Below, piece by piece: positions 7,695 to 31,218 of a stretch of 31,671 nt of DNA. Each line of letters begins with the position of its first letter. The stretch's first letter is position 1. The position numbers were made by a program, and so were the translations under genes. The notes under the pieces are model-generated. The model had not been told where the DNA came from, did not search any database, and was given only the letters and a program-made list of their open reading frames with translations. Origin of the DNA: Thermodesulfovibrionales bacterium (lineage in GTDB: Bacteria > Nitrospirota > Thermodesulfovibrionia > Thermodesulfovibrionales > UBA6898); the NCBI GenBank assembly GCA_044450345.1, contig JBIOIY010000037.1:1-31671 (forward strand). The letters are read 5' to 3'.

Positions 7695-8010
7695 TCTTAC
7701 TCCTTATATTTATTTATGCACGAAGCCCACCTTGTTAGAAAATCTCGGTCTTCTGACAGGGTAAAGTAATGTAACACGCCGGAGGATTTTTTTCAAAGAA
7801 GACGAACTTGCTTAACAGTTGCCGGATGTCATTCGAGAGGAACATTTTCTGCGACGCGGAAATCTTAGAGTATCGCCGCCGCCAGCGCTGTGGTCAGAAT
7901 CTTTCGCGAAAGGGCAAACACCTAACCTGTCTTTCAGCCCCCGTTTATTTCTGGTCTCAGTTCTGAACTTTTTCTTGATATCAGCCATCGGTTAGGATAA
8001 CATGATCAAT

Positions 8011-8967: not shown

Positions 8968-9092
8968 AATTGAAAGTGGGGATAAGAAGACGCTTTGATT
9001 TTCAACTGTAGAGGCGGGTCTTGTTGCAAAAGCAATGTGGCCGGTCTATTGAAGGAGAGATTTTTTGTCCCCAGGCAGGAGGATGGGTTCTA

Positions 9093-16639: not shown

Positions 16640-16766
16640 CCCTTAAAATGGGTAATTATTCCCCATTAAAATGGGGAATTTTTCTACAATAGCACGAGTC
16701 TTTCTCACCGTACGTCCTCTGGGTCTGCGGAAACAGGCCCTTTTTCCCCGTGGCACTCTATTTGCT
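16640..16766 (+). promoter_or_regulatory. sigma54 promoter with tandem upstream activator-like sites
   Basis: TGGCAC-TCTAT-TTGCT at 16751-16766 (GG-N10-GC). TTAAAATGGG repeats at 16643 and 16666, the second inside the palindrome TTCCCCAT-taaa-ATGGGGAA. Confidence 0.75.
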
Positions 16767-16782
16767 CTCTAAATACATACCT

Positions 16783-17127
16783 ATGGCCGAAACACTGCTA
16801 TGTTCGAACAATCCGATCCTCGTCAAGAGTCTCTATGGAATTCTGAGAGACGAAGGGATCAGCGTCGATACCGCGGACCATCCCTCCCTTGCGGTCCAGA
16901 TGGCGCTTAAAAAAAAATATGCCGCGCTGGTCATCGATTCGGAGCCATTCGGCCTCTCGGTCGAAGACGCGATAAAGATCATTAAGACCGTCCTTCCGGA
17001 GATAGTTGTAATATTCGTCGGATATGATACCCTTGATACAGATGTTCTGAGCATCGAGGCCCCTATTGACCTCGATCAGTTCAAGAGCACAATCCGGAGC
17101 ATCGGCAGGATGCATATCATGCATTAA
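16783..17127 (+). CDS. Degenerate (pseudo-)receiver domain protein
   Basis: Receiver-like pattern (TLLCSNNP..LRDEG..V..A..ALVIDSE..G....AIKIIK..P...VIFV). The N-terminal acidic pair is replaced by SNN and the conserved Lys is missing (EAP). The ORF-track GTG at 16750 lies in the sigma54 -24 box. Confidence 0.7.
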   Translation: MAETLLCSNNPILVKSLYGILRDEGISVDTADHPSLAVQMALKKKYAALVIDSEPFGLSVEDAIKIIKTVLPEIVVIFVGYDTLDTDVLSIEAPIDLDQFKSTIRSIGRMHIMH

Positions 17128-17148
17128 ATTCAGGAGAAGGGAGAATTT

Positions 17149-18189
17149 ATGGAACCACGGGAAATCATTCTTAAGGCTTTTGAAAAAGGGAAACCGGAAC
17201 GGGTCCCGGTCACGCTCTTCGGCGGCGGGATGTGGAGCATCAAGGACTACGGGTCGACATTCGAGGAGTTGGGCAAGGATGCGGCCAAGATGGCCGACAT
17301 GTGCATCAAGGAGGCGGAGAGGATCAGGAGCGATGTAATCTATGTGGGCTCGGGATATAACAACTTCCACGCATCGGCCCTCGGCACCGCTTTCGGTGCC
17401 GGGGTAAAATACCGCGAGATAGGCGCACCGGACCTCACCAAGCACTTCGTCAAGTCCGAGGAGGATATCGAAAAGCTCAACATGGATGACGTCCACAAGG
17501 ACCCAGTCTTAAAAAACGTCTTGGAAGCCACGCGGCTTGTCCACCAGAAGATAGGGAAAAAATATCTGGTCACCATGACCTGCTGGGGCCCCTTCACCCT
17601 CGCCGCCAGGTTTGTAGGGGAAGAGGACTTCATGAAGTTTACCTTCAAAAAGCCGGCATTCGTCGAGAAGATGGTCAATTTCTGCGCTGACCTGCTGATA
17701 CACCTCTATGCGCCTCTGGTTGCCGACGGCTCGCTCGAGTGTCTGAGCATCGCCGATCCCACGGCCTCGGGCGACCTCATCAACCCCAAACAGATGGCCA
17801 AATTCGCGGTGCCGCCGCTCAAGAAAATGAGCGACTGGGCGAAATCGAAGAACGTGCATACCATCCTCCATATATGCGGCAATACGAGCGACCGGCTCGA
17901 ACAGTTCATCGATACCGGCTGCAGCGTGATCTTCTTCGACCAGAAGGTCGATATTGCCAAGGCCAAAGAGGTCCTTTTAGGCAAGATGTGCTTCGGCGGG
18001 AATGTTGCTCCGGTCCACGTACTCCTGAACAAGACCGCGGCAGAGGTCGAAACGGCCTGCAAGGAAGTGATCGAGATCGCCGGGAAAGACGGCGGGTTCG
18101 TGCTCGTGCCGGGCTGCGACATACCGCCCACTATCCCTTATGAAAATCTGAAGGCATTCCATGACGCTGCATTTAACTGGAAGTATTAA
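17149..18189 (+). CDS. MtaA/CmuA-type methylcobamide:thiol methyltransferase (URO-D fold), copy 1
   Basis: KPERVPV, GPFTLA, IADPTASGDLI, zinc motif LHICG...PGCD. Confidence 0.88.
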   Translation: MEPREIILKAFEKGKPERVPVTLFGGGMWSIKDYGSTFEELGKDAAKMADMCIKEAERIRSDVIYVGSGYNNFHASALGTAFGAGVKYREIGAPDLTKHFVKSEEDIEKLNMDDVHKDPVLKNVLEATRLVHQKIGKKYLVTMTCWGPFTLAARFVGEEDFMKFTFKKPAFVEKMVNFCADLLIHLYAPLVADGSLECLSIADPTASGDLINPKQMAKFAVPPLKKMSDWAKSKNVHTILHICGNTSDRLEQFIDTGCSVIFFDQKVDIAKAKEVLLGKMCFGGNVAPVHVLLNKTAAEVETACKEVIEIAGKDGGFVLVPGCDIPPTIPYENLKAFHDAAFNWKY

Positions 18190-18335
18190 GGGCGAAAAAA
18201 TTCCGGGAAGGGAGGTGAGTGCGCAGCAGCAAAGAATAAACCCTTATAAAGGGGGAGGCAAGAATGGGATTGTTTGATTTTATCAAGCAGCTTCTGGCCC
18301 AAGGGCCGGAAAAAAATGTTAGGGAGGAGACAAAG

Positions 18336-18782
18336 ATGGCAGATGCGAAGAAGATGACTGTAGAAGAAGTGAATGAGTATATGAAGAAACAGTGCGGTTT
18401 CGTACCGAGGATGTTCCAGATAATCAACACGGTCACTCCGGAACCGGGGAGGACCTTCGCGGATTTCTACGCGAGTATCTTCGGTGATGGCGCGCTGTCC
18501 AAAAAGGTGAAGGAACTGATGTTCATGTCGGGCGGTGTTGGATACTGCTCGCCGCGCTGCATCATCCACGTGATTCCCGCCATCAACGCGGGCGCGACCA
18601 CAGGCGAGATATTCGAGGCAGCATCGGTCGGGATGATCCTCGCGGGTTTTGTGCCGGGCGGCCCTGGCATCCCCTACGCGTTCGAATATGCCCTCAAGTG
18701 TCTTGATATCGAGGCAAAGTTCAGAAAGGGCGAGAAGTGGGAGTACCTGCCGCAGCCGAAGTTCGATCACGGCGTATTCTAA
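18336..18782 (+). CDS. Carboxymuconolactone decarboxylase/AhpD-like protein
   Basis: GALSKKVKELM, CSPRCIIH, AINAGATTGEIFEA. ATG 18336 follows GGAGGAG; the in-frame ATG 18264 also has a GGAGG SD. Confidence 0.82.
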   Translation: MADAKKMTVEEVNEYMKKQCGFVPRMFQIINTVTPEPGRTFADFYASIFGDGALSKKVKELMFMSGGVGYCSPRCIIHVIPAINAGATTGEIFEAASVGMILAGFVPGGPGIPYAFEYALKCLDIEAKFRKGEKWEYLPQPKFDHGVF

Positions 18783-18791
18783 AGAATACAC

Positions 18792-18895
18792 AAGTGTCGG
18801 TGTCGGTGGTGGGTGTCGGTAAGCGCAGAAAAACTGAAAATATTTACTTACACTTTTACAGCTGACACTACAAACTGACACTGACACTGACACTT
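18792..18895. repeat. Inverted hexamer-repeat hairpin element
   Basis: AAGTGTCGGTGTCGGTG...GTGTCGGT on the left and (CTGACA)n...CACTT on the right; complementary with G:U pairs. Confidence 0.6.
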
Positions 18896-18905
18896 CAAAA
18901 AAAGA

Positions 18906-18937
18906 GGGCAGCCTATTCCCGTGAATAAGGACTGCCC
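18906..18937. terminator. Stem-loop upstream of the mtrH-like gene
   Basis: GGGCAGCCTATTC-ccgt-GAATAAGGACTGCCC. It is flanked by A-runs, so the U-tract is on the minus strand; it may instead stabilise the mRNA. Confidence 0.4.
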
Positions 18938-18987
18938 AAAAGTGAAACGATAGCTTATTTTACCACAATTTTCGAAAAAGGAGCGCT

Positions 18988-19944
18988 ATGTTCATATTTC
19001 AAAAAGAACAGAAGGTCTTTGATTTTAACGGCATAAAGATAGGCGGCCAGCCGGGCGAGAATCCGCCCCTCATGATCTCCTCCATGTTCCACAACAAGGA
19101 CCGGATCGTGCAGGACCGCAAGGGGAACTTCGACCGGCAGCGGGCAAAGGAAATCATCCGGAAGCAGGAGGAACTCTCGAAGGTGACAGGCGTTCCCGGT
19201 ATGGTGGCGATGGTGGCGAATTCACCGGAAGAGGCGAAGATATATATAGACTTTTTCCTCGAGACGACGGACATGTCCTTCGGCATCGACATGTGGGTGG
19301 CAGAACAAAGGGCGAAGGCAACCGAATATGTATCAAAGCTGGGGGTCCAGAACAAATTCCTCTACAACAGCATAACCCCGTGGGACAAGGACATCAAAGG
19401 ACAGATTCAGCGGTTGAAAGACCTCGGGATAAAACATGTTGTGATACAGGCGTTTGACGACCAGGACCAGTCCCCTGCCGGAAGGGTGAAATCCCTTGAA
19501 TCGATCCTGGCGCAGGGTGCGGACGGCTTCGCTACCATTATCGTCGACACCTCGGTGATGAACCTCCCGTCGACATCGTTTTCCCTCGTCGCAAACAGGA
19601 TGATAAAGGAGAAGCACGGGTTCCCCTGCGGCGGGGCATATTCTAACGGGACGCATATGTGGAAAGAGATAAAGGCGATCTGGGGACTCGACGGCTTCAA
19701 GGCCATGGACGCGGTTGTCCAGGGCATGTCGTCCGCCCTTTGGTCGGACTTCAACTTCTGCGGGCCTGCCGTCACAGCCCCTAGGGTCTTCCCCGCGGTT
19801 GCGAGTGCGCATATGCTTCTTTCGACGCTCGTCTTCGACGAGACCGGCGTCATCTTCGACAACCCCGAACTCCCGTTGCGGAAGTATTTCGGCGATTTCA
19901 TCACCAAGATCCAGGAGGGCGGATCGAGGAAAAAAGGAAAATAA
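18988..19944 (+). CDS. mtrH: MtrH-family methyl-corrinoid:tetrahydropterin (THF) methyltransferase
   Basis: MFIFQKEQKVFDFNGIKIGGQPGENPPLMISSMF, LYNSI, IIVDT, GFPCGGAYSN; no other mtr subunits in the window. Confidence 0.88.
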   Translation: MFIFQKEQKVFDFNGIKIGGQPGENPPLMISSMFHNKDRIVQDRKGNFDRQRAKEIIRKQEELSKVTGVPGMVAMVANSPEEAKIYIDFFLETTDMSFGIDMWVAEQRAKATEYVSKLGVQNKFLYNSITPWDKDIKGQIQRLKDLGIKHVVIQAFDDQDQSPAGRVKSLESILAQGADGFATIIVDTSVMNLPSTSFSLVANRMIKEKHGFPCGGAYSNGTHMWKEIKAIWGLDGFKAMDAVVQGMSSALWSDFNFCGPAVTAPRVFPAVASAHMLLSTLVFDETGVIFDNPELPLRKYFGDFITKIQEGGSRKKGK

Positions 19945-19977
19945 CGATATGACATACAGAAAGGAGAATTTCAATTT

Positions 19978-21003
19978 ATGAATTCACGAGAGAGAGTCAT
20001 CAAGCTGTTCAAAAAGGAGGCGATCGACAGGGTCCCCTGTTTCAGCGGCATGGGGAACATAACCGAAACCGGTATCAACAAGCTCGGCTACCGGTTTGCG
20101 GGCATCCATCTTGACGCAAAACAGATGGCGGACACCGCGGCCACAACCTACAAACTCTTCGGCTATGAATGCGGAGTCGTACCTGTAGACCTCTGTGTCG
20201 AGGCCGAGGCGATGGGCTGTGAGATCAATGTCTATCCCCATGCGGAGGGCATACTCTACCCGACCATTAAGCAAAAACTGATCCACAGCGAGGACGAGAT
20301 GAACATCTCACTGCCGGCGGATCTCGGCTCCCGGGGCAGGGTCCCTCTGTTGAGAGAGGCGATAAGACTGCTGAAGGCCGATATCGGCAACGACGTTGCA
20401 ATAGGCTCGTATGTCCTGGGACCATTCACCCTCGCTGGCCAGATAATGGAGTTGAACGACCTGCTGAAGCTCTCGTTCAAGAAGGCCGACAAGGTGGCTA
20501 AACTGCTTGACCTTGCGGCGGATGCCATTATCATTGTCGCAAAAGAGTTTGAGAAGGCGGGCGCCGATTATATAACAGTCAGAGAGATGGGTGCCACGAG
20601 CGACGTCCTGAGCCCCCGGGTCTTCAAAAACCTTATCATGCCCCCGCTTCAGAAGGTGCTCAAGACGATATCGGTCCACTCCGTGCTCCATATTTGCGGA
20701 AAGACGAACGATATCGTCACCACCATGATGGAGGCCGGACCCACGGCAATCAGCGTCGAACAGAAGAACGACGTTGCAGAGTCGAGGAAGAAACTGGGAA
20801 GCGATGCGCTGATCTTCGGCAACTTCGACCCTTACAACGTACTGGTATCGGGCAGCGAAGAGCTCGTGCGCACCACGATGCGCAAGTGCATCGACGACGG
20901 CGTCAGCGCCGTCTGGCCGGGCTGCGACATCTGGCCGACAGTGCCGCCCCAGAACATGATCGCCATGATAGAAGAAATAAAAACGTATGGAGGTAAACAA
21001 TAA
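19978..21003 (+). CDS. MtaA/CmuA-type methylcobamide:thiol (CoM) methyltransferase, copy 2
   Basis: IDRVPCFSG, VPVDLCVEAEAMGC, GRVP, GPFTLAG, LSPRVF, zinc motif LHICG...PGCD, GNFDP. Confidence 0.9.
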   Translation: MNSRERVIKLFKKEAIDRVPCFSGMGNITETGINKLGYRFAGIHLDAKQMADTAATTYKLFGYECGVVPVDLCVEAEAMGCEINVYPHAEGILYPTIKQKLIHSEDEMNISLPADLGSRGRVPLLREAIRLLKADIGNDVAIGSYVLGPFTLAGQIMELNDLLKLSFKKADKVAKLLDLAADAIIIVAKEFEKAGADYITVREMGATSDVLSPRVFKNLIMPPLQKVLKTISVHSVLHICGKTNDIVTTMMEAGPTAISVEQKNDVAESRKKLGSDALIFGNFDPYNVLVSGSEELVRTTMRKCIDDGVSAVWPGCDIWPTVPPQNMIAMIEEIKTYGGKQ

Positions 21004-21686
21004 TGGCTGACGAAGCACGGAAAAAAGAGATCTATGACAAATTGAGAAACGGCGTTATCCAGTATGACGAGGACGCTTGCAGAGAGGGCGCGAATGAAGC
21101 AGTGGCGGAAGGGCTCGACGCGAACGAGGCGATCTTCGACGGCCTCGTCTCCGGCATGGAAGAAGTCGGCAGGCTCTTCGAGGCCCAGGAATATTTCGTC
21201 CCGGAGATTTTGATGTGCGCCGATGCGCTTTACGCTGGACTCGAGATCCTCAAACCCCACTGCCAGCAGATGGACCTGGGGGTGAAGGGCTCTGTCGTTA
21301 TCGGCACGGTCGAAGGAGACGTCCACGACATCGGCAAGAACCTTGTGAAGATGATGTTCGACGTCGCAGGGTTTACGGTCTACGACCTCGGCAGGGACGT
21401 CCCCCTCGACAAGTTCGTCGACGAGCAGATGAAGACCGATTCAGAACTCGTCTGTCTTTCTGCGATGATGACCACCTCGATGGTCGGCATGCCGAAGGTC
21501 ATAGAGAAGATCAAGGCAAAGAACCCCAACTGTATGATCATGATCGGCGGCGCGCCGACGTCCAAGGAACTCGCCGATAAATGGGGCGCAGACGGGTATG
21601 CCGAAGACGCCAGCAACGCGCTGAAAGAGGCGATCAAGATGGTCGCGTTTCTTAAAAAACTTAGGGACGAAAAGCTGAAGAAATAG
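21003..21686 (+). CDS. Methyltransferase corrinoid protein (MtaC/MttC family)
   Basis: B12 cap (GLVSGMEEVGRLFE..EYFVPE) and D-x-H-x-x-G (EGDVHDIGKNLV), DLGRDVP, LSAMMTTS, IGGAP. Confidence 0.96.
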   Translation: MADEARKKEIYDKLRNGVIQYDEDACREGANEAVAEGLDANEAIFDGLVSGMEEVGRLFEAQEYFVPEILMCADALYAGLEILKPHCQQMDLGVKGSVVIGTVEGDVHDIGKNLVKMMFDVAGFTVYDLGRDVPLDKFVDEQMKTDSELVCLSAMMTTSMVGMPKVIEKIKAKNPNCMIMIGGAPTSKELADKWGADGYAEDASNALKEAIKMVAFLKKLRDEKLKK

Positions 21687-21693
21687 GCAGCCG

Positions 21694-22335
21694 GTGAATG
21701 CCGACCCGCTGAAGCAGTTTCTTAAGGCTGAGGGCGCAACCCTCGTCGGAGTGGGCGATGTCACGAAGGCACTCTCAAAGGAGATCGTCCACCTGAGCAG
21801 AGGTATTGCCATCGCAGTAAACCGGAGCCTCACCAGGGATACTGTCGATCTGCTCATCCGTCTCCAGGCCCTGGCCGAGGGATGGCTTAAGGCGAAGGGA
21901 TACCGGAGCCTTTCTATCCCGCCGGACTCGGACCGGAAGATGGGCAAGATGATCTCGAAGCTTTACACGCTCTTCTGCCACAAGACCGCGGCGACCTGCT
22001 CCGGTCTCGGATGGATCGGGAAGAACGGCCTGATCATCAACGAGCAGTACGGGTCGAAGATGACCTGGGCGACCGTGCTGACCGATGCCCCGCTGGCCAC
22101 TGACCGGCCTTATATAGCATCGCAATGCGGGGAATGCGATCTCTGCGCAAAGCACTGTCCCTCCGGCGCGGTGAAAGGCCACCTCTGGTCGCTCGGCAAC
22201 CCCCTGAGGGAGATCGTCGCGTACGACAAATGCAGGGCCCTGAAGTCGGGGAGGACGGCGCTCAAGGAAAAACCCAATTGCGGGTTCTGCGTGACAGTCT
22301 GTCCCTATTCACGGAATGGAGGCACACACAAATAG
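21694..22335 (+). CDS. QueG/reductive-dehalogenase-like 4Fe-4S protein
   Basis: HKTAATCSGLGWIGKNGLII..YGS....ATVLTDAPL, CGECDLCAKHCP and CGFCVTVCP; GTG start. Confidence 0.8.
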   Translation: MNADPLKQFLKAEGATLVGVGDVTKALSKEIVHLSRGIAIAVNRSLTRDTVDLLIRLQALAEGWLKAKGYRSLSIPPDSDRKMGKMISKLYTLFCHKTAATCSGLGWIGKNGLIINEQYGSKMTWATVLTDAPLATDRPYIASQCGECDLCAKHCPSGAVKGHLWSLGNPLREIVAYDKCRALKSGRTALKEKPNCGFCVTVCPYSRNGGTHK

Positions 22336-22435
22336 TCCGGCGGCACTGATAAAATGTCATTTTTCTCAGAGAGATAAATATTGTTAGACGTATGCCGTTA
22401 TTAATGATTAATAAAATTACAGGAGGAAATACTAT

Positions 22436-24427
22436 ATGAGTCGTATGTTTAAGGTGATCTTCCAGCCGGCAGGCCGGAGGGGAGAGATAGAGGAAGGGAC
22501 CACAATTCTGAAAGCCGCACAGCGTCTCGGCGTCGACCTCGAGGCGCTCTGCGGGGACAAGAAGGTCTGCGGGAAATGCAAGATCAGGATCGAAGAAGGC
22601 TACTCCGAAAAAGACAATCTCGATTCCGGAATGAAACATATCACGCCGCAAGAGCCGACCCCCGATGAGATGAAGCATATAAAGCCCGAAGACGGACCCG
22701 GCATCAGGCTCGCCTGCTCATGCGAGATACACGGCGACCTTAAGGTCTTCGTCCCGGAGCGGTCGAGGGCCGGCAAACAGGTGGTGCGCAAGGCCGCAAA
22801 AGAACTTTCGATCGCCCTTGATCCGGCGGTCAAGAAATATACGCTGACATTTACGCCACCGAAGCTGCACGACATGACCACGGGCGATTACGAACGAGTT
22901 GTGAAGGCGATGGAAGATATTTATGGCATCAAGGACCTTACGTTCGACTTCGAAGTGCTCCTTCAGCTGCAGGATGCCCTGCGCACAGGTGAATGGACGA
23001 TAACCGTAACGGTCTGGCAGGGCAGGGAGATAATCAAGGTCGAACCGGGTCATGTGGATGTCTGCTACGGCCTTGCCGTAGACATCGGCACCACTACCTG
23101 TGTAGGCTATCTCTGTGACCTTTCGACAGGAAAGGTGGTCAACACGGAATCGATGATGAACCCCCAGGTCCCCTACGGCGAGGACGTCATGTCGAGGATT
23201 ACTTACGCCATGACCAACCCCGAAGGACTCAAGACTATGCAGGATGCGATCATCACCGGGCTGAACGAGATCATCGAGAAGGTGGTTGCGGAGGTCAAGA
23301 AGGACGGCCCCCATCCCGGCGTTGCGATCGACGACCTCACCATAGTCTTTAATACCGCGATGCACCATATATTCCTCGGGCTGAACCCGGTCTACATCGG
23401 ACGTTCTCCCTTCATCCCCGCTGTGCAGCGGTCGCTCGATATCAAGGCCCGTGACATCGGGCTGAAGATCAATCCGGGGGCATTCATTCATGTCCTGCCG
23501 ATCGAGGCAGGGTTCGTAGGCGCAGACAACGTCGGGGTGCTTATCGCCCAGGAGCAGTATTTCCAGGACGACATGGTCCTGATCATAGACATCGGCACAA
23601 ACGGCGAGCTTCTCCTCGGCAATAAGGACAGGGTATGTTCCACCTCATGCGCAACAGGCCCTGCCTTCGAGGGCGCGCAGATAAAGTTCGGCATGCGCGC
23701 CGCTCCCGGGGCGATCGAGAAGGTCAAGATAGACCACGTAACCAAGGAGCCCAAGTATAAAGTCATCGGCAAGGCAGATTGGCATACACACGTAGAAGGG
23801 AAGATCAACGCAAAAGGCATCTGCGGCTCAGCGATCATAGATGTTATCGCAGAGATGTTTCTGGCGGGGGTCATCGATAAAACAGGGAAGTTTGTCATGG
23901 ACCCCGGCACAAACAGGATCAGGAAAGATGCGGGAGGGAAGCCCGAGTATGTCCTTGCCTGGGCTGAAGAGACCTCGATCAACCAGGACATCACGGTCAC
24001 CCAGGGCGACGTCCGGGCACTCCAGCTCGCCAAGGGTGCGCTTTACACCGGCGCAAAGCTGATGATGCAAAAGATGGGCGTTACTAAACTCGACCGCGTC
24101 GAGCTTGCAGGGGCCTTCGGCAGCCATATCGACCGCGAGGCGTCGCTCATGCTCGGTATGTTCCCTGACGTGCCCATCGACAAGGTGGTGGTCGTCGGCA
24201 ACGCAGCAGGCGACGGGGCGAGGATGGCTCTTCTGAACAAAGCCAAACGGATCGAGGCGTCCGAACGCGCCCGTTGGGTCGAGTTCGTTGAGATAGCTAC
24301 CGAGCCGGCCTTCGAGAAGGAGTTCATGCAGGCGATGCATATCCCCCACATGAAGGACAAGTTCCCGAATCTCAAGAAGATGCTTGAGGAACAAAAATCG
24401 ATTTTGGCCCCGAGCATAAAAGGATAG
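22436..24427 (+). CDS. ATP-dependent reductive activator of corrinoid proteins (RACo/ASKHA, DUF4445) with N-terminal 2Fe-2S
   Basis: CGDKKVCGKC...RLAC, AVDIGTTT, NPQ..YGEDVMSRI, GFVGAD, IDIGTNGE, ATGPAFEG, GICGS, AGAFGS, GNAAGDGA. Confidence 0.93.
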   Translation: MSRMFKVIFQPAGRRGEIEEGTTILKAAQRLGVDLEALCGDKKVCGKCKIRIEEGYSEKDNLDSGMKHITPQEPTPDEMKHIKPEDGPGIRLACSCEIHGDLKVFVPERSRAGKQVVRKAAKELSIALDPAVKKYTLTFTPPKLHDMTTGDYERVVKAMEDIYGIKDLTFDFEVLLQLQDALRTGEWTITVTVWQGREIIKVEPGHVDVCYGLAVDIGTTTCVGYLCDLSTGKVVNTESMMNPQVPYGEDVMSRITYAMTNPEGLKTMQDAIITGLNEIIEKVVAEVKKDGPHPGVAIDDLTIVFNTAMHHIFLGLNPVYIGRSPFIPAVQRSLDIKARDIGLKINPGAFIHVLPIEAGFVGADNVGVLIAQEQYFQDDMVLIIDIGTNGELLLGNKDRVCSTSCATGPAFEGAQIKFGMRAAPGAIEKVKIDHVTKEPKYKVIGKADWHTHVEGKINAKGICGSAIIDVIAEMFLAGVIDKTGKFVMDPGTNRIRKDAGGKPEYVLAWAEETSINQDITVTQGDVRALQLAKGALYTGAKLMMQKMGVTKLDRVELAGAFGSHIDREASLMLGMFPDVPIDKVVVVGNAAGDGARMALLNKAKRIEASERARWVEFVEIATEPAFEKEFMQAMHIPHMKDKFPNLKKMLEEQKSILAPSIKG

Positions 24428-24437
24428 AAGTTATCAC

Positions 24438-24761
24438 ATGACCAAGGTCAGGGTGGATCCGGGGCAATGCGGCATGGCGGCCGTTGTCGAGGTGAAACAG
24501 AAAGGAAAGGGAGTCTTCGAACTGCGGATCACTTCCGACTGTGATATGGTCCGGAAGCTCGGAGAAGAGGTCCCCACCCTCAAACTTGCGGACGCCTTCA
24601 AGAAGCTGCTTGAAAATCCCGTATACAAGAAGGGGGCGACATGCATCAAGCATGTCGCCTGTCCCATTCCATGTGCCATCCTAAAGGCGCTCGAAGTCGA
24701 GGCCGGACTAGGCGTCCCAAAAGACGTTACGATGGTCTTCATTAGTGATGAAGACAAATAG
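24438..24761 (+). CDS. Small Cys-motif protein (DUF6951-like)
   Basis: PGQCG, SDC, HVACPIPCAILKALEVEAGL..PKDV; family assigned from memory. Confidence 0.65.
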   Translation: MTKVRVDPGQCGMAAVVEVKQKGKGVFELRITSDCDMVRKLGEEVPTLKLADAFKKLLENPVYKKGATCIKHVACPIPCAILKALEVEAGLGVPKDVTMVFISDEDK

Positions 24762-24788
24762 TCCCTTACCATAGGGTATAATCAGCTT

Positions 24789-25598
24789 ATGACTGATGTG
24801 GTCTATTACAAGCCATGGTTCCTCTTCCGTATCTGCGAAATCCTGGCCTTCGGCTATCTCTTATATTCATTCCAGAGGCGGATGAAGTCATGGGGCCGGG
24901 GACGGCAACGGCCAGGCACCGGGGGATGGACGCTGCAAACGATACGGATATGGCTTATGGAAGTCCTGATCCAGAGACAGCTCCTTGCCCTCTCCTTCTC
25001 CCGCTGGGTCGTCCATATGCTTATATTCTGGGGCTTCATCTGTCTGGGGGCGCTCTCATTATTCCTATTCCTCCTCTCGCTGGCGGAAATGTCGGGCATC
25101 GACGGCGGTCTCAGAACCTACTTCCTTCACGGCAGCGGCCACGCTGCGGTGAAAGTCTGGGGCGATCTCTTCGGCATCTTCCTGCTCGCAGGCCTTCTTT
25201 CCGCAGGCGTCCGGCGTCTCTTCCGGCGCCCGCGTCAGCTCGTCAATGACCAGGACGACATCGTGCTCCTGGCGTATCTCATCTGGCTTACTATCGGCGG
25301 TTTTTTCTTAGAGGGACTGCGTCTCAGTCAGATTCATCCGGATGTTGCGCGCTATTCTTTTGTGGGGCGTTTCTTTGCCCTGGCCTGGGCAATCAACGCC
25401 TCTGACATCGGTCTGTGGATGACAGCCGCGTGGACCATTCATGCCTTCAGCGGTCTCGGCCTCCTGCTCTATCTGCCAAATAGTAAACTCATACACAGTC
25501 TGCTCGGCCCGGTCGTCATCGCGCTGAACGCCTCTGAAGAACGGGAAAGGAAGGACATCTATTGGCCGAGGATAAAAAGTCACAGGCCGATAAAATAG
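24789..25598 (+). CDS. NarI-family membrane cytochrome b, HdrE-like (pair 1)
   Basis: About 5 TM; RWVVHMLIFWGF, GFFLEGLR, WTIH...YLPNSKLIH; overlaps the following CCG gene. Confidence 0.85.
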   Translation: MTDVVYYKPWFLFRICEILAFGYLLYSFQRRMKSWGRGRQRPGTGGWTLQTIRIWLMEVLIQRQLLALSFSRWVVHMLIFWGFICLGALSLFLFLLSLAEMSGIDGGLRTYFLHGSGHAAVKVWGDLFGIFLLAGLLSAGVRRLFRRPRQLVNDQDDIVLLAYLIWLTIGGFFLEGLRLSQIHPDVARYSFVGRFFALAWAINASDIGLWMTAAWTIHAFSGLGLLLYLPNSKLIHSLLGPVVIALNASEERERKDIYWPRIKSHRPIK

Positions 25599-26839
25599 CC
25601 GGAGGACTTACCCGGAGGCAGCTCATTGAGATCGAGTCCTGCAGCCGGTGCGGCGAGTGCCTGCTCTGGTGCCCGGTCTACCCTCACGACTCAAGGGAAG
25701 ATATCACCGCAAGGGGAAAGCTCGGCCGGCTCCGAAAGATGGTATCGGAAGACGCTGCTTCGGCCGCTGACGCGGCTCTTTTAGACGCGTTCTATGCATG
25801 TTCCGCATGCGGCCAGTGCCATGTGGTCTGTCCTATCCGCATCGATACCCCGGAACTTTGGGAACAGGCCCGCCAGGCCCTTGCAAGCGCGGGTCTGTCT
25901 CAACCGGAACCGCAGTTACAGCAGCTTGCGCTGATCAGGGAATGCAATAACTCATACGGCAAACCCCAGCGGGAACGGGGCCGTTGGGCAGAACGTGCCT
26001 GGCGTGCAGGGTTCCTCCGTGAACCACTCAGAACCTGGGACGAACGTCCGGCTTCTGTCCTCTATTTCGCCGGTTGCACGGCCAGCTTCGATCCGGCGAT
26101 GCAGCCGGTGGCTGTGCAGTCTGCACGCCTGCTTCAGGAGGCAGGGGTGGAGTTTGCTATCCTCGGGCAGGAGGAGCCATGCTGCGCCAGCAAGCTCCGG
26201 CGCATGGGGGACAGCCACTTTTTTCAGGAGGCAGGAAAGAGAGCAGAAATGCTCAGGAGCAAAAAGGTGCGGACGATCGTCGTCTCTTGCGCAGGCTGCT
26301 TCAAGGGACTGCATGCCGATTACCGGGGCATTCTTTCCGGTGACATCGAAGTGCTTCATCTTACAGAGTTCCTTGACGGCCTCATTCGCGATGGCAGGTT
26401 GAGGCCGCGGTATAACGTCCCCCTTTCGGTAACCTACCATGACCCTTGCCACCTCGGACGCCACAACGGCATCTATGAGGAGCCACGCAGGGTACTGAAG
26501 TCAATCCCCGGGCTGCGCCTCATCGAAATGCGCAGGTCCGGCCCTTTCTCCGCCTGTTGCGGCATGGGAGGAGGACTAAAGCTCGCACGGCCCGACCTGC
26601 AGAAAAAGATGTCGGCGTCGCGGATCAAGGAGGCGGAGGCTGCCGGCGCAGAGGCGGTTGTCACCCCGTGCCAGACCTGCCTCATGGGACTCACTGCAGG
26701 CGCCGCTGCCGCATCTTCATCCCTGCAGACATTTCACCTTAACGAAGTGCTCATGCGTTCCCTCTGCCCTGATATCACGGCAGAAAATATCGTAGCGGCG
26801 CTGGGAGAAATGAACGAACCGGATGAAGGGTCTTTATGA
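25562..26839 (+). CDS. HdrD-like heterodisulfide reductase catalytic subunit (pair 1)
   Basis: Two 4Fe-4S motifs (CSRCGECLLWCP, CSACGQCHVVCP) and two CCG domains (FAGC..CCAS..SCAGC; HDPCH..CCG..PCQTC); TTG start. Confidence 0.88.
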   Translation: MAEDKKSQADKIAGGLTRRQLIEIESCSRCGECLLWCPVYPHDSREDITARGKLGRLRKMVSEDAASAADAALLDAFYACSACGQCHVVCPIRIDTPELWEQARQALASAGLSQPEPQLQQLALIRECNNSYGKPQRERGRWAERAWRAGFLREPLRTWDERPASVLYFAGCTASFDPAMQPVAVQSARLLQEAGVEFAILGQEEPCCASKLRRMGDSHFFQEAGKRAEMLRSKKVRTIVVSCAGCFKGLHADYRGILSGDIEVLHLTEFLDGLIRDGRLRPRYNVPLSVTYHDPCHLGRHNGIYEEPRRVLKSIPGLRLIEMRRSGPFSACCGMGGGLKLARPDLQKKMSASRIKEAEAAGAEAVVTPCQTCLMGLTAGAAAASSSLQTFHLNEVLMRSLCPDITAENIVAALGEMNEPDEGSL

Positions 26840-26911
26840 CGAAAAGGATGCGTATTTAAGATCAGCAGACCCTGAGACGGCGTGATTGTGAGATAATATA
26901 AGCATAAACGG

Positions 26912-27595
26912 ATGGGAATGCTTCTGGTCATAATCGCATACCTGGTGTATGCTGCCTTCTGGGTGCGGCTCAGCCTGCATACGCTCCTTTGGTTAAAGTC
27001 GGCGCGCCAGCTGCTGCCCCACCACACAGCCCCCGATGTAAAACGATGGCCGGCCTTCGCCACTGCTGCATTGGACCTGTTTTTTTTCAGAAGGCTTTTC
27101 GCATCCAACAAATGCTTGTGGCTGGGTTCATGGGCTTTTCATACCGCGTTTCTCTTTGTCATCCTTCGTCACCTCAAATATTTTTTAAACCCCGTGCCCG
27201 ACTGCATATGGTGCGTCCAGCCCTTCGGTGTCGCGGCGGGATATGTACTCACGTTCTCATTGCTTTATGTGATGGTCGCGCGGATGGCTGCCAGGATAAG
27301 ATACGTCTCCTATCAGAACTATGTCATCCTGGGCCTCCTTTTTTTCATCGGTGCAACGGGACTTCTGATGAGAAATTTTTTCAGACCCGACCTCATAGAC
27401 GTGAAGAGTTTTGTAATGGGCATTGTCGCTTTCAGGCCCTCTCCGCTGCCCGGCAATTTTTTTTTCGTCATCCACTTTTCTCTCGCCCTTCTTTTGATCC
27501 CGTATCTCCCCTTTCATATTTTTACCGCGCCGCTTATCGTTATAGAGGCAAGCAGACGGCAACAGGGACTTGATATGGTGATGCATGGAAAATAA
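26912..27595 (+). CDS. NarI-family membrane cytochrome b, DsrM/HmeC-like (pair 2)
   Basis: FFRRLF, WLGSWAFH..FVILRHLKYFLNPVP, TGLLMR, FFFVIHFSLALLLIPYLPFH. Confidence 0.82.
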   Translation: MGMLLVIIAYLVYAAFWVRLSLHTLLWLKSARQLLPHHTAPDVKRWPAFATAALDLFFFRRLFASNKCLWLGSWAFHTAFLFVILRHLKYFLNPVPDCIWCVQPFGVAAGYVLTFSLLYVMVARMAARIRYVSYQNYVILGLLFFIGATGLLMRNFFRPDLIDVKSFVMGIVAFRPSPLPGNFFFVIHFSLALLLIPYLPFHIFTAPLIVIEASRRQQGLDMVMHGK

Positions 27596-28835
27596 TGAGG
27601 ATAATAATATCCGGAAGGAAACGCCGGGGGGACCTTTTACCTCCGGTCTGACTCCCCTGCAGCTCATCGAGATTGATGCCTGCACGCAGTGCGGAGAGTG
27701 TCTGAAATTCTGCCCTGTCCAGGACGTCACAGGGAACCCCCTTATCTCGCCCCCTGAGAAGATACGCATCTTCAGGGAATTCATAAGGGCCACGGAGGGG
27801 ATGAAGGCACGGTTGTTCGGCGCCGGGGAGATAGACCGGAAGCTCCTCGACGACTTCACAAAGGCCGTGTTCGAATGCACGACCTGCGGGGCCTGCGGCC
27901 AGCACTGCACCGTGGGTATCTTCACACAACGGCTCTGGCCCATGCTCAGGAAGGAGATGGTGAGACGGGGGCTGGGACCGATCGGACCGCAGGCGGAACT
28001 GCCGAATGCGATCGCACACACAGGAAACCCATATAACAAACCCGCCGGAGAGCGCTATGCGCCGTGGTTTCCCGCGGACGTAAGAATATCAGAGAAGGCC
28101 GATATCGCCTACTATGCCGGATGCACCGGGGCGTACGAGGCGCAGCCGATGGTTAGGGGAGATGTAATTGTGCTCGGTAAAAGCGGAGAGCCTTTTACGA
28201 TGCTCCCGCCTGAGGAGGAGGTTTGCTGCGGGTTCCCGTTGTTCATCACCGGCCAGCACGACATGCTTGAAGACCTGGTCCGGAGGCTGGTCGCTTCCTA
28301 CAAGGCCAGGGGCGTCAAGACACTTCTTTGCTCATGCCCGTGCTGCGTAAACATAATGTCACGGGACTGGCCGGCCTATTATGGGTCTGAACTGCCATTC
28401 AGGATACGGCATATGACCCAGTTCGTGGAAGACGCGCTTAGGACCGGGAAGCTGCTCATCAGGAAAGAGCTGCGCGAAAGACTGATCTATCATGACCCCT
28501 GCTACCTAAGCAGGGGCGTGGGGATAACGGAAGAGCCGAGGGCTGTGCTCAAGGCTATCCCGGGCGCCGAGCTTGTCGAGTTCGGAAGAAACAGGCTCGA
28601 GTCGAGGTGCTGCGGTGCCGGCGGGGCCGCACGAAAGGTCTTTAACGATAATGCGATCGCTATGGGCAGGCTCACCATAGACGAAGCCGTGGATAAGGGT
28701 GCAGACAGGCTTATCCTCAGCTGTCCTGCATGTTACGCTAAGGTAAACGAGGCGATGCAGGGATACGACCGCCAGATCAGGATCACCGATATCATGGAGC
28801 TCCTTGCGGACGTCGTGGAAAGGGGGGGCTCATGA
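27585..28835 (+). CDS. hdrD: HdrD-like heterodisulfide reductase catalytic subunit (pair 2)
   Basis: QLIEIDACTQCGECLKFCP, CTTCGACGQHC and two CCG domains (YAGC..CCG..SCPCC; HDPCY..CCG..SCPAC). Segments KARLFG, GLGPIGPQ and NPY recall Methanosarcina HdrD. Confidence 0.85.
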   Translation: MENNEDNNIRKETPGGPFTSGLTPLQLIEIDACTQCGECLKFCPVQDVTGNPLISPPEKIRIFREFIRATEGMKARLFGAGEIDRKLLDDFTKAVFECTTCGACGQHCTVGIFTQRLWPMLRKEMVRRGLGPIGPQAELPNAIAHTGNPYNKPAGERYAPWFPADVRISEKADIAYYAGCTGAYEAQPMVRGDVIVLGKSGEPFTMLPPEEEVCCGFPLFITGQHDMLEDLVRRLVASYKARGVKTLLCSCPCCVNIMSRDWPAYYGSELPFRIRHMTQFVEDALRTGKLLIRKELRERLIYHDPCYLSRGVGITEEPRAVLKAIPGAELVEFGRNRLESRCCGAGGAARKVFNDNAIAMGRLTIDEAVDKGADRLILSCPACYAKVNEAMQGYDRQIRITDIMELLADVVERGGS

Positions 28836-30088
28836 GTCATTTTCACATAAGATGCAGCAAATGCGGCAAGGAACTGAAGGACACATTCTGCGCTTTCTGC
28901 GAGCACTGTACGGATTCTCTTTTGACTACGGAATATATAGTGCCTTTCAGGGACGACTGCGGCCAGGGCATCTGGAAGTTCAACTGGCTTCCCGTCCATG
29001 CCCCGACGTTCGAGCAGCCGTGCACCGTCGTCTATCAGTCCCAGTGGCTTGCACGCCACCTGGCACTCGAGCACCTCTACATCGCTTACAACGGATTCTG
29101 GCCCGAGCGGGGGGCGCTCCTGCAGACCTGTACCTTCAAGGAGTTCGAGGCGGCAGTCGTTCTCCAAAACGCGCTGGAAAACGGGGTCAAGGGTCTCGTG
29201 GTCGCCTCAGCCGGAAACACTGCCCGCGCCTTTGCCCATCTTTCGGTGGTAGCGGGTTTCCCGGTGATTATTGTTGTGCCCAGGATGTGCCTTATGGAGA
29301 TGTGGTATCTTGAAAGCTCGTCGACGGTGCCGACCCTTGCGGTCGGCGACGGCGACTATTCCGATGCCATCGACGTGGCACGCCGTATCTCGGCGATTGC
29401 AAACTTTCCGTTTGAAGGAGGGGTAAAGAACGTTGCCAAGCGAGACGGCCTCGGCGCCACAATCCTCGAGTCCGTTTCACGCATCGGGAGGCTGCCGGAC
29501 CATTATTTCCAGGCGGTAGGCAGCGGGACCGGAGGTATAGGCGTTTGGGAGATGTCCGAGCGCCTGCTGCGCGAAGGCAGGTTCGGCGGCTCCCTTCCAC
29601 GTCTTCACCTTGCGCAGAACCTTCCGTTTGCGCCGATGGTGAAGGCATGGGAGCGGAGAAGTAGGGAACTGGCCCAAGAGGACCTAAGACCGGAGCTGAT
29701 AGGCCAGATATCGACACGCGTGCTCTCCACCAGGTATCCCGCCTATTCGGTGCAGGGCGGCGTCTTCGACGCCCTGACCGCCACAAGCGGCAGGATGTAC
29801 GGTGTGACTAACCGTGAGGTCTTCGAGTCCATGGAACTCTTCAGCAACCTTGAGGGCGTGGACATTGTCGCAGCATCCGGGGTCGCAGTCGGCGCTCTGA
29901 TTCAGGCAGTGAAGGCGAAAGCGGTCAGCAAAGACGACGTGATCCTGCTGAACATAACCGGCGGCGGCGAGATCGTGCTTGGCAGGGAGAAAAAAACCTA
30001 TAATGTAGAGCCGACCTTTGTCTCGAAGAAGGTGACTGACGCGGAGATAGGGGAGATCGTATGCGAAATCCTGAAGAAAAACTGTTAG
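28832..30088 (+). CDS. Cysteate synthase (threonine synthase-like PLP enzyme)
   Basis: YNGFWPERGA, TCTFKEFEA (PLP Lys), ASAGNTARAF, DYSDAI, EGGVKNVAKRDGLG, YFQAVGSGTGGI, LHLAQNLPF.PM, LLNITGGG; adjacent to comDE. Confidence 0.9.
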   Translation: MSHFHIRCSKCGKELKDTFCAFCEHCTDSLLTTEYIVPFRDDCGQGIWKFNWLPVHAPTFEQPCTVVYQSQWLARHLALEHLYIAYNGFWPERGALLQTCTFKEFEAAVVLQNALENGVKGLVVASAGNTARAFAHLSVVAGFPVIIVVPRMCLMEMWYLESSSTVPTLAVGDGDYSDAIDVARRISAIANFPFEGGVKNVAKRDGLGATILESVSRIGRLPDHYFQAVGSGTGGIGVWEMSERLLREGRFGGSLPRLHLAQNLPFAPMVKAWERRSRELAQEDLRPELIGQISTRVLSTRYPAYSVQGGVFDALTATSGRMYGVTNREVFESMELFSNLEGVDIVAASGVAVGALIQAVKAKAVSKDDVILLNITGGGEIVLGREKKTYNVEPTFVSKKVTDAEIGEIVCEILKKNC

Positions 30089-31218
30089 CGATTCTTAGAG
30101 ATGCAGGCGTGGATTTCACCGCCTCCCTACCATGCGAGAAGATCAAGCTCCTTCTCGAGATGCTGGGACGATCATTTTTCCACGTCCCCCTGACGCGTGA
30201 AGAGGAAGGCGTCGGCATATGCGCGGGCGCCGCATTGTCCGGGAAGAGAGCGGCGATGTTCGTTCAGAGTTCGGGCATCGGCAATATGATCAACTCACTG
30301 CTTTCCCTCACCCAATTCTATGAGCTCCCTCTTGCGGTCTTCGTAAGTCAGCGAGGGATTTACAAGGAAAAAATAGCGGCCCAATTCCCGATGGGCAGAC
30401 GGCTCCCGGCGATCCTGCGGGGGGCGGGGATCGGTTTTTCCCTCATCAGTTCAGAGGGTGATTTCGGGACGATCGAAAAGAAGCTCGCGGGATCATACCG
30501 GAATAACAGGGTCCACGCCTTTCTGATGAACCCGGCGATCTGGGAGAATTCGGAGGCTGCACGGAAATACTCAGGATGCGGATCGCTTCCCGCGTGCGGC
30601 TATCAGGCCGGGCCCGGGAAGGACGTCGAAGAGTCGTCTTTGCGCAGAACAGGGGTAAAACCGTTCTATACGCGCTTCGAGATACTTACTATGGTCGCGC
30701 CTTATCTCGAACCCAAGGTCGTTGTATGCAACCTCGGATTCCCGTCGAAAGAGCTTTACTTTGTCGGGCATCGGCCGTCAAATTTCTATATGCTCGGGAG
30801 CATGGGCATGGCAACGCCCATCGGTCTGGGCATAAGTCTATCCACGACCAAAGAGGTGATCGTCATCGACGGCGACGGGAGTCTGCTCATGAACCCAGGC
30901 ACCCTCGCGACCGCGGCCCATTTCTCCCCTGCCAATCTCACGGTCCTTGCGATCGATAACGGCTCTTACGGCTCAACAGGTGACCAGCCCACGCTTGCGG
31001 GTTCCTGCGTGGACCTGGAGGCCGCAGCAAGGGGCTTCGGGATAAGAGATACCTGCAAGGTTTCGACAAAGAAACAGTTGATTAAGGCCATGAAGAGCGG
31101 AGGCAAGGGATTGAGGTTCATCCATGCGCTTGCAGTGCCGGGAAACAAAGACGCCCCGAATATACCGATAGACCACCTTGAGATAAAAAAACAATTTCAG
31201 GAATTTCTGAAGACCTGA
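30061..31218 (+). CDS. comDE: Fused sulfopyruvate decarboxylase ComDE
   Basis: ComD part SLPCEK, PLTREEEGVGICAG, QSSGIGN, SQRG..E; ComE part NLGFPSKELY, NFYMLGSMG, ThDP motif DGDGS...DN. Confidence 0.9.
   Translation: MRNPEEKLLAILRDAGVDFTASLPCEKIKLLLEMLGRSFFHVPLTREEEGVGICAGAALSGKRAAMFVQSSGIGNMINSLLSLTQFYELPLAVFVSQRGIYKEKIAAQFPMGRRLPAILRGAGIGFSLISSEGDFGTIEKKLAGSYRNNRVHAFLMNPAIWENSEAARKYSGCGSLPACGYQAGPGKDVEESSLRRTGVKPFYTRFEILTMVAPYLEPKVVVCNLGFPSKELYFVGHRPSNFYMLGSMGMATPIGLGISLSTTKEVIVIDGDGSLLMNPGTLATAAHFSPANLTVLAIDNGSYGSTGDQPTLAGSCVDLEAAARGFGIRDTCKVSTKKQLIKAMKSGGKGLRFIHALAVPGNKDAPNIPIDHLEIKKQFQEFLKT

Follow-up and report, generated by a model that had tools for sequence, protein, structure and literature searches.

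The 31,671-bp contig JBIOIY010000037.1, analysed over its entire length and referred to below as the window, is contig C37 of a 3.19-Mb genome of a Thermodesulfovibrionales bacterium (GCA_044450345.1; 86 contigs, 91% complete, 1.9% contaminated). It carries an operon of 15 genes (16783-31218), all located on the + strand with short gaps or overlaps between neighbours and preceded by a sigma-54 type promoter element. Judging by family assignment, the operon encodes the synthesis of sulfoacetaldehyde, a complete set for corrinoid methyl transfer (two zinc enzymes of the thiol type, one enzyme of the pterin type) and quinone-linked Hdr-like Fe-S proteins. The cluster is a real and widespread, apparently undescribed variant of coenzyme M (CoM)-type methyl-transfer/Hdr biochemistry in bacteria. 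The window proteins were searched against the Pfam and NCBIfam models and the following features were recognized:

16643..16680, + strand: direct repeats, 2 x 15 nt, 14/15 identical, with a 23-nt period, 70-108 nt upstream of the -24 element
16751..16766, + strand: sigma-54 type -24/-12 promoter element TGGCAC-N5-TTGC, the sole match in the window
16783..17127, + strand: small opening gene of 114 aa with a weak likeness to receivers (Response_reg 17.1 bits; cut-off 30.2)
17149..18189, + strand: MtaA1, zinc methyltransferase of the URO-D/MtaA family (PF01208 201 bits; TIGR01463 193 bits, below the cut-off of 235)
18264..18782, + strand: AhpD/carboxymuconolactone-decarboxylase (CMD)-like protein (PF02627 24.9 bits)
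18988..19944, + strand: MtrH-family methyl-corrinoid:pterin methyltransferase (NF002142 326.6 vs a cut-off of 287)
19978..21003, + strand: MtaA2, zinc methyltransferase of the MtaA family (PF01208 226 bits; NF004889 254.9 vs a cut-off of 244)
21003..21686, + strand: corrinoid (B12-binding) methyl carrier protein (PF02310 + PF02607), the sole copy in the genome
21694..22335, + strand: small 2x[4Fe-4S] protein with kinship to the Fe-S portion of reductive dehalogenase/QueG (TIGR02486 60.8 bits and TIGR00276 55.2 bits, both below cut-off)
22436..24427, + strand: RACo-type ATP-dependent reductive activator of the corrinoid protein (PF14574, PF17651, PF17650, PF00111; four RACo/Fer2 domains)
24438..24761, + strand: DUF6951, small Cys3His protein (PF22263 99.4 bits)
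24789..25598, + strand: cytochrome b-like membrane protein 1 of the NarI/HdrE/DsrM family (PF02665 27.7 bits)
25562..26839, + strand: HdrD-like protein 1, 2x[4Fe-4S] + two CCG domains (PF02754 111.5 bits, two stretches; best NCBIfam match TfrB, 177 bits, below cut-off)
26912..27595, + strand: cytochrome b-like membrane protein 2 (DsrM model 75 bits, below cut-off)
27585..28835, + strand: HdrD-like protein 2 (PF02754, two stretches), its 3' end overlapping the cysteate synthase start by 4 nt
28832..30088, + strand: cysteate synthase (CysS; phosphoserine + sulfite to cysteate; TIGR03844 443.2 vs a cut-off of 324.9)
30061..31218, + strand: fused sulfopyruvate decarboxylase ComDE, 385 aa (sulfopyruvate to sulfoacetaldehyde; TIGR03845 174.4 vs 147.95; TIGR03846 223.2 vs 221.5)

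A preliminary description of this DNA had listed 15 co-directional genes after a sigma-54 element, and the open reading frames together with the Pfam and NCBIfam matches recovered all of them, with the families listed, on the + strand and at this place. The start given there for the first open reading frame (16751) had to be corrected to the ATG at 16783, and its product is only a sub-threshold, receiver-like match (17 bits). The genes that had been named were assigned correctly, whereas three were left without a name: the AhpD/CMD-like gene, the gene for the reductive dehalogenase/QueG-like 2x[4Fe-4S] protein and the DUF6951 gene.

The two genes closing the operon correspond to the type II (phosphoserine) pathway of CoM synthesis known from Methanosarcinales. 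Both CysS and the fused ComDE pass their equivalog cut-offs and the genes are adjacent, as in methanogens (PMC4045070). Together with the second cytochrome b and HdrD genes they form a tighter sub-block, cytochrome b2-HdrD2-CysS-ComDE, with gene overlaps of 4 nt and 28 nt.

The methyl-transfer part starts with MtaA1. Both MtaA proteins show the His-x-Cys ... Cys zinc motif that had been claimed for them: the ligands H241, C243 and C323 of MtaA1 were invariant among 45 sequences, and H238, C240 and C316 of MtaA2 among 51. The best solved relative of MtaA1 was the MtaA of M. mazei (4ay7, 107 bits), which MtaA2 matched with 171 bits. The score of MtaA1 was under every MtaA cut-off, including those of NF040654 (MtaA_Meth, 164 vs 400) and NF041608 (MtbA, 162 vs 600). 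MtaA2 missed TIGR01463 by one bit (234.4 vs 235.4) and also stayed under the equivalog cut-offs (NF040654, 240 vs 400; NF041608, 176 vs 600). For the MtrH-family enzyme, the solved relatives were MtrH (8z9u_B, 181 bits) and the methylcorrinoid:tetrahydrofolate (THF) methyltransferase of D. hafniense (6sj8, 143 bits); the enzyme of the operon probably acts toward THF as well.

Both HdrD-like proteins combine Fer4 with two CCG stretches, which is the architecture of HdrD. In HdrD2, eight ferredoxin cysteines and 10 cysteines assigned to the two CCG motifs were invariant among 58 sequences. The cytochrome b2 contains hydrophobic segments and four histidines (H77, H87, H188 and H202) invariant among 33 sequences, by which it probably binds haem. 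The identity of the pairs with DsrMK was considered and rejected, as the DsrK model gave 63-83 bits against a cut-off of 400 and the DsrM model 75 against 300, and closer DsrM/K-like genes are present beside dsrAB on another contig. Both cytochrome b/HdrD pairs announced in the preliminary description are indeed present in the window, but only one of them is generally conserved: the two occurred together in 4 of 77 related loci (L007, L010, L012 and L022), and the first pair of the window is the extra one.

To describe the conservation of the cluster, relatives of the cysteate synthase were collected with one genome per species. Of the 85 relatives confirmed in this survey, the best 80 were analysed, 77 bacterial and 3 archaeal, the bacterial ones coming nearly all from metagenome-assembled genomes (MAGs) of Nitrospirae/Nitrospirota/Thermodesulfovibrionales/Candidatus Sulfobium. 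The 15 window proteins were aligned to the loci of the relatives, and the denominators given below are the loci with enough flank. ComDE was located directly downstream of cysteate synthase in all 69 bacterial loci. An HdrD-like gene ending at most 200 nt upstream of cysteate synthase was found in 50/65 loci; this criterion is strict, and several of the 15 misses have an HdrD-like gene slightly farther off. MtaA2, the corrinoid protein and RACo lay upstream and co-directional in 48 of the 51 loci whose flank reached 8.4 kb or more, DUF6951 was found upstream of cysteate synthase in 50/51 and MtrH in 45/48. Such an order was maintained even though protein identities dropped to 35-65%. A second, independent survey started from DUF6951 in metagenome contigs and yielded 485 relatives; among the best 80 analysed, the same gene order was seen in 44/47 loci that were 5 kb or longer. 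Since gene order is kept across the bacterial and the metagenome loci, the biosynthetic genes and the genes of their presumed users form one conserved unit, and the co-occurrence of comDE and cysteate synthase with mtaA and hdrD, whose absence from other genomes would have refuted the preliminary description, was borne out.

The same data dispose of the objection that archaeal genes were joined to a bacterial contig by an assembly error. The question arises only because CoM-type genes are best known in archaea, and no support for it was found. The same gene order and junctions recur in dozens of independent assemblies, including contigs of 130 kb-2.7 Mb (L008, L054, L067 and L076), the G+C content stays within 0.51-0.60 over 16-31 kb of the window with no step, and the genes overlap at the supposed junction (27585-28835 with 28832-30088). 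The chimera explanation is therefore refuted, with practically no probability left to it. Upstream of the operon, the window contains ordinary bacterial genes coding for a receiver domain, GNAT and PAS-GGDEF proteins, IscS, TusA, Rrf2/IscR, PyrD/PyrK, GreA, a 1114-aa AAA/BTAD regulator and OsmC, in agreement with the earlier assignment of the contig to a bacterium.

The rest of the genome points to a sulfate or sulfite reducer. It encodes dsrA (540 bits), accompanied by dsrB, and an acetyl-CoA synthase (ACS) domain (206 bits), and DsrMK-like genes are placed next to dsrAB on a separate contig, C6. Neither mcrA nor MttB was detected in this 91% complete genome, and no further copy of the MtaA, corrinoid protein, MtrH, AhpD/CMD-like or DUF6951 genes was present elsewhere in it. 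Given the single gene copies, the presence of dsrAB and ACS and the location of DsrMK-like genes elsewhere, the operon constitutes a self-contained extra module of a sulfate/sulfite reducer with the Wood-Ljungdahl pathway. The claim that it operates without methanogenesis also holds, because the host is a bacterium carrying dsrAB and ACS without mcrA. The sulfoacetaldehyde acetyltransferase Xsc was rejected as a constituent of the genome, its best match reaching 348 bits vs a cut-off of 676.

The distribution of the cluster was followed in 390 species genomes of the class Thermodesulfovibrionia. Cysteate synthase exceeded its cut-off in 126 of them; at E <= 1e-60 it was found in 85/264 high-quality genomes of the class and in 43/53 of the family to which the window belongs, and three families of the class were entirely devoid of it (0/22, 0/57 and 0/21). 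Counted by hand, 115 of the 390 genomes had both CysS and DUF6951, 12 CysS only, 7 DUF6951 only and 256 neither.

The three closest archaeal cysteate synthases were 45-46% identical to that of the window, and one of their genomes is titled Hydrothermarchaeota. No mcrA and no COG1900 was found in these three genomes, whose completeness was not established. In two of them (G390 and G391) CysS-ComDE is followed by genes for an SsuA/NMT1-like protein, a DUF2096-like protein and an AhpD-like (CMD) protein; DUF6951 comes after the AhpD-like gene in G391, and the G390 contig ends inside the AhpD-like gene. Other contigs of both genomes carry MtaA2 (50-55% identity to that of the window), the corrinoid protein (66-68%), RACo (57-58%) and MtrH (37-38%). 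G391 additionally has MtaA1 (51%) and an AhpD-like gene (L104), and a third contig of G390 (L103) shows the order CMD-MtaA1(48%)-cytochrome b-like. As G390 and G391 carry this gene set, thiol-type methyltransferases and CysS-ComDE occur together, without MCR or ComF, in both domains. The high identities suggest, at the level of sequence, that the kit was transferred between Nitrospirota and MCR-free archaea.

In the MCR-free archaeal loci L082 (2948-3862) and L083 (4038-4943), the gene directly after ComDE encodes a cytoplasm-type NMT1/SsuA-like protein. Its position is that of MMP16 in Methanosarcina (MA3297-MA3299), and the protein adds another candidate for the last step that is missing. 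The third archaeal arrangement (L084, 11224-15441) consists of cysteate synthase, a class I/II aminotransferase, separate ComD and ComE and a two-subunit succinyl-CoA-ligase-like enzyme, a composition that suggests another fate for the sulfonate.

The favoured interpretation, held tentatively, is that of one sigma-54-controlled operon in which corrinoid-dependent S-methyl transfer comes with the genes for making its own sulfonated thiol (in the simplest case CoM, obtained without ComF), with a link to THF and quinone-linked recycling of the disulfide. By their family assignment, CysS and ComDE produce sulfoacetaldehyde from phosphoserine and sulfite, the intermediate step presumably being performed by a general aminotransferase encoded outside the operon. 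Thiolation of sulfoacetaldehyde would then give 2-mercaptoethanesulfonate (CoM) or a near relative of it independently of the archaeal ComF, either through the abundant sulfide of a sulfate reducer or through conserved operon proteins such as the AhpD-like one, DUF6951, the small Fe-S protein or HdrD2/cytochrome b2. The two His-Cys-Cys zinc methyltransferases would shuttle methyl groups between thiol/thioether compounds and the single corrinoid protein, which the MtrH-family enzyme would couple to THF and hence to the Wood-Ljungdahl pathway, and RACo would re-reduce the oxidised corrinoid. The cytochrome b/HdrD-like pair would pass electrons between the quinone pool and the thiol disulfide (or persulfide). 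The net role is most likely catabolic, with methylated sulfur compounds as a carbon/electron source for sulfate reduction. The stronger form of this proposal is that sulfate-reducing Nitrospirota and related MCR-free archaea make CoM itself without ComF and use it as both methyl and redox carrier, by methyl-S-CoM/THF exchange via one corrinoid protein and quinol-linked, HdrDE-like reduction of a CoM disulfide or persulfide; in that form it is rather doubtful.

Variants of the cluster bear on several of these steps. In 11/77 related loci folD is inserted between DUF6951 and the cytochrome b gene, which supports the connection with THF; that connection further follows from the resemblance of MtrH to the D. 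hafniense THF enzyme and from the ACS of the genome. A chemoreceptor gene within the cluster (L011, L016, L020, L032 and L042) suggests an environmental substrate. Genes of SsuA-type ABC transporters between DUF6951 and cytochrome b (L022, L024 and L042, and also L113, L117, L118, L131 and L139), as well as SsuA-type permease and ATPase genes immediately before CysS (L026), point to a sulfonate. Transporters and chemoreceptors within the cluster variants thus give the system its sulfonate theme and catabolic flavour.

The transporters, sometimes accompanied by a chemoreceptor, could also be read as a sign that a methylated sulfonate thioether, e.g., methyl-CoM released by neighbours, is imported and broken down, with CysS-ComDE only topping up the free thiol. 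Transporter genes are nevertheless found in a minority of loci and are absent from the window, and the substrate of the SsuA/NMT1 family is not readable from sequence. We know of no environmental pool of methylated sulfonate thioethers. Breakdown of an imported thioether is regarded as improbable.

Several observations weigh against the synthesis and use of CoM by the operon, the first being the last biosynthetic step. No match to COG1900 (PF01837), the family of MMP16/ComF and L-ASST, was found in the genome at its 91% completeness, in which the MMP16 model TIGR03287 retrieved ferredoxin-domain matches only (at most 25.6 bits). A single genome of the 390 of the class carried COG1900, and that one was without cysteate synthase; the family was absent from all 127 cysteate-synthase-positive genomes. 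Therefore, no known last step to CoM is encoded, and the claim that the thiol is CoM found no support. Here the operon, like the CysS-positive genomes of the class, departs from the type II pathway: its host is a dsrAB bacterium lacking mcrA, and the nearest archaeal cysteate synthases found likewise come from genomes without mcrA. According to the part of PMC11844431 that deals with M. acetivorans, MMP16 is the main CoM synthase of that organism and its deletion mutant requires CoM only without sulfide. A ComF-independent route to CoM exists, because the MMP16-less strain needs CoM only in sulfide-free medium (PMC11844431, same part). The ComF gap is real, yet softened by the sulfide-dependent bypass of Methanosarcina and the sulfide-rich cytoplasm of a sulfate reducer.

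Further points of the same kind concern the use of the thiol. Without MCR, methyl-CoM has no known sink and the CoM-S-S-CoB heterodisulfide no known source, so the recycling of a disulfide by the HdrED-like pairs, as previously suggested, is unsupported. Both MtaA proteins lie far below the MtaA/MtbA equivalog cut-offs. The clusters are also not always complete. CysS-ComDE was found without other operon genes nearby in L029 and L074, and in three loci (L160, 3985-9400, L171 and L172) DUF6951 stands amid MtaA-like genes, a corrinoid protein and RACo that are 25-56% identical to those of the window, without cysteate synthase or ComDE in the available flanks. Judging by its composition, the latter group looks like an mlp-type cluster of another lineage, and DUF6951 may accordingly be tied to the methyltransferases rather than to thiol synthesis.

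The mlp clusters are the closest published concept. In the main text of Kountz and Balskus (PMC10418091), type 1 mlp clusters are described as sets of two or three MtaA-like His-Cys-Cys proteins, a corrinoid protein and RACE which are widespread in non-methanogens, mostly Firmicutes, and contain no THF methyltransferase. Their proposed substrates are methyl-sulfur and methyl-selenium compounds, not CoM; one Mlp methylates selenide and, more slowly, sulfide, and His-Cys-Cys is given as the mark of S/Se-methyltransferases within the MtaA superfamily (PMC10418091, main text). As similar enzymes of non-methanogens are thought in that text to use methyl-sulfides/selenides, the action of the MtaA-type enzymes on CoM, assumed in the preliminary description, is unsupported. 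The operon shares with the clusters of the main text at least two MtaA-like proteins, one corrinoid protein, RACE/RACo and a strictly anaerobic non-methanogenic host, and differs by the MtrH-family gene (45/48 loci), the Hdr-like pairs and CysS-ComDE. The terms Nitrospir-, cysteate and MtrH never occur in the main text of PMC10418091, supplements apart.

On this background, the operon might consist of two merely co-regulated modules. An Mlp-type demethylase would transfer methyl groups of methyl-sulfides/selenides (methanethiol, dimethyl sulfide or dimethyl selenide) straight to THF without an organic thiol, and a separate cytochrome b/HdrD-CysS-ComDE block would make a sulfonate (a solute, a lipid head group or a means of sulfite handling) beside an unrelated quinone-linked reduction. 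Such a division accounts for the missing ComF family and MCR, and agrees with the wide occurrence of mlp clusters in non-methanogens as given in the main text of PMC10418091, with the tighter sub-block and the solitary CysS-ComDE of L029 and L074, and with DUF6951 without CysS in L160, L171 and L172. It does not explain why both parts are adjacent and co-directional in 48/51 loci with protein identities as low as about 50%, why they co-occur across domains in MCR-free archaea or why CysS and DUF6951 follow the same patchy distribution (115/12/7/256). Moreover, in the archaeal L083, CMD and DUF6951 are located beside CysS-ComDE and not beside methyltransferases, and the operon possesses a pterin methyltransferase, unlike type 1 mlp clusters. 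The two-module explanation, the main rival of the favoured interpretation, is considered somewhat unlikely.

The direction of methyl flow is a separate matter. In methanogens, methyl transfer from a thioether to a pterin is uphill by about 30 kJ/mol (the Mtr reaction). A thiol carrier operating toward THF therefore brings no obvious gain, which also counts against the favoured interpretation. The methanogen Mtr reaction runs downhill when the methyl group passes from a pterin to a thiol, in favour of a reversed flow in which methyl-THF from the Wood-Ljungdahl pathway would donate its methyl group, by way of MtrH and the corrinoid carrier, to thiols, to sulfide or selenide, or to arsenic species. 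Such a flow would serve to detoxify or volatilise, and the sulfonated thiol would accept or carry the methyl group. Weak matches link the AhpD-like protein to arsenic-methylation AhpD domains (TIGR04169 22.5 bits and NF041537 19.8 bits, both far below cut-off), and relatives come from rice-paddy and groundwater MAGs. Nevertheless, no ArsM-type enzyme was found in the operon with Pfam and NCBIfam, the chemoreceptor and folD genes of the variants fit the use of a substrate better, and the quinone-linked Hdr-like pair is left without a role. Reversed flow is seen as improbable. As to the earlier account as a whole, its observation was confirmed and its interpretation partly supported.

With the soluble methylcobamide:CoM methyltransferases MtaA/MtbA/MtsA and HdrDE of methylotrophic Methanosarcina, the operon shares the URO-D fold, the His-Cys-Cys zinc ligands, the corrinoid partner and the ATP-dependent activase, and, as in HdrE/HdrD, a cytochrome b with a 2x4Fe-4S/2xCCG subunit. 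It differs from them by scores below the MtaA/MtbA equivalog cut-offs, by the lack of an MtaB/MttB partner, by a soluble MtrH-family pterin link in place of the membrane Mtr complex and by a host without MCR. Bacterial three-component corrinoid methyltransferase systems that feed THF, e.g., MtgABC of D. hafniense, have in common with it a substrate methyltransferase, a corrinoid protein, the MtrH-family THF enzyme (6sj8, 143 bits), an activase and the link to the Wood-Ljungdahl pathway; the operon departs from them by two thiol-type zinc enzymes on the substrate side and by the sulfonate synthesis and membrane redox genes.

CoM is known from methane-/alkane-metabolising archaea and from aerobic alkene-oxidising bacteria, and in the latter the genes of CoM synthesis sit with the genes of CoM-using enzymes, a precedent for the arrangement proposed here. 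Their Xcb pathway is unlike the operon in its phosphoenolpyruvate-based route (as given in part of PMC11844431), in serving epoxide carboxylation and in its aerobic setting. If the stronger form of the proposal, with CoM itself, is true, it would add a third, non-methanogenic and non-alkene biology of CoM, common to both prokaryotic domains. A conserved operon of this kind, present in roughly one third of the Thermodesulfovibrionia species, would broaden CoM biology or reveal a new sulfonated thiol. It would also indicate that a thiolation step independent of ComF is still missing, and would offer molecular access to methylated-sulfur use by abundant sulfate reducers of groundwater, wetland and paddy soil.

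No description of the cluster was found in a literature search on CoM in Thermodesulfovibrionia, sulfopyruvate decarboxylase in Nitrospirae/Thermodesulfovibrio/Sulfobium, bacterial CoM biosynthesis and CoM/MtaA of Hydrothermarchaeota, and no paper was found that combines cysteate synthase with Nitrospirota or that deals with DUF6951. In the Candidatus Sulfobium paper (PMC5812927), methyltransferase, corrinoid, Hdr and coenzyme M never occur. In passages of two other papers (PMC9326234 and PMC6081815), mtaA of Nitrospirota-type sulfate reducers was taken as a sign of methyl-compound use.

The three small conserved proteins not named before were inspected in alignments. That of the AhpD-like protein had a mean column identity of 78% with an invariant S-P-R-C-x-x-H, including C99 and H102, and the predicted model matched CMD/AhpD structures with a probability of 1.00. 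Eight cysteines of the small Fe-S protein were invariant among 50 sequences. In DUF6951, C11, C35, H72 and C75 were invariant (30 sequences), and the spacing of these four residues is presumably reminiscent of the IscU ligands. Its predicted model (pLDDT 92.5) gave weak top folds of the SufE/SufU/IscU type (Foldseek E 0.08-0.3, VIA Z at most 6.1), with nothing at E <= 0.001 in Foldseek; as far as the model goes, the protein is possibly an IscU/SufE-like sulfur or metal carrier. Clusters of DUF6951 in the protein atlas come from Nitrospirota, Thermodesulfobacteriota and Chloroflexota. Among 14 named control genomes, only that of Methanosarcina acetivorans had a match to DUF6951 together with a cysteate synthase match exceeding the cut-off.

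The use of selenocysteine by the AhpD-like or DUF6951 proteins was considered and rejected, since each in-frame stop turned out to be an overhang of the alignment or an isolated break, with no TGA opposite a cysteine. L067, the nearest relative recovered (cysteate synthase 91% identical), has an in-frame TAA at codon 24 of its DUF6951 gene (7643-7966), and a genome of the same genus has one TAA within its DUF6951 match (G293:C8:618768-619070). DUF6951 may be dispensable or broken in these two genomes.

Upstream of the operon, the direct repeats at 16643-16680 are a candidate binding site for a sigma-54 activator, and no gene of such an activator was identified in the window, where no search aimed at one was made. 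A similar sigma-54 element was present upstream in 5/7 related loci having at least 450 nt upstream of MtaA1, and the small first gene was kept in the first position in 11 related loci with 34-80% identity. After ComDE, neither a terminator-like nor a sigma-70-like site was found. An A+T-rich spacer separates ComDE from an open reading frame that runs off the contig end (31493-31669); with its hydrophobic N-terminus and CxxCH motif, it resembles the beginning of a secreted c-type cytochrome.

A soil metatranscriptome (n=1), in which 0.06 of the sampled words were present, contained contigs with 90-99% identity to stretches of MtrH, MtaA2, the corrinoid protein, DUF6951 and ComDE, and one that crossed the HdrD1/cytochrome b2 junction (26381-27018). 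The contigs covered 18/30 bins, the empty bins being uninformative. These RNA data are a weak hint, coming from relatives and possibly affected by DNA carry-over, that the operon is transcribed.

Two other groups of genes in the window deserve mention. The 1114-aa large regulator (9021-12365) has an N-terminal AAA ATPase and a C-terminal BTAD domain and is followed by small genes without a family match and then by a gene for a 308-aa 2x[4Fe-4S] protein (13378-14304). On the - strand, 2492-5395 encodes an IscS-type cysteine desulfurase, a TusA-domain protein, an Rrf2/IscR regulator and then a SAM hydroxide adenosyltransferase (DUF62 family); for this sulfur-relay set, situated 13 kb from the operon, a link to the operon is possible.

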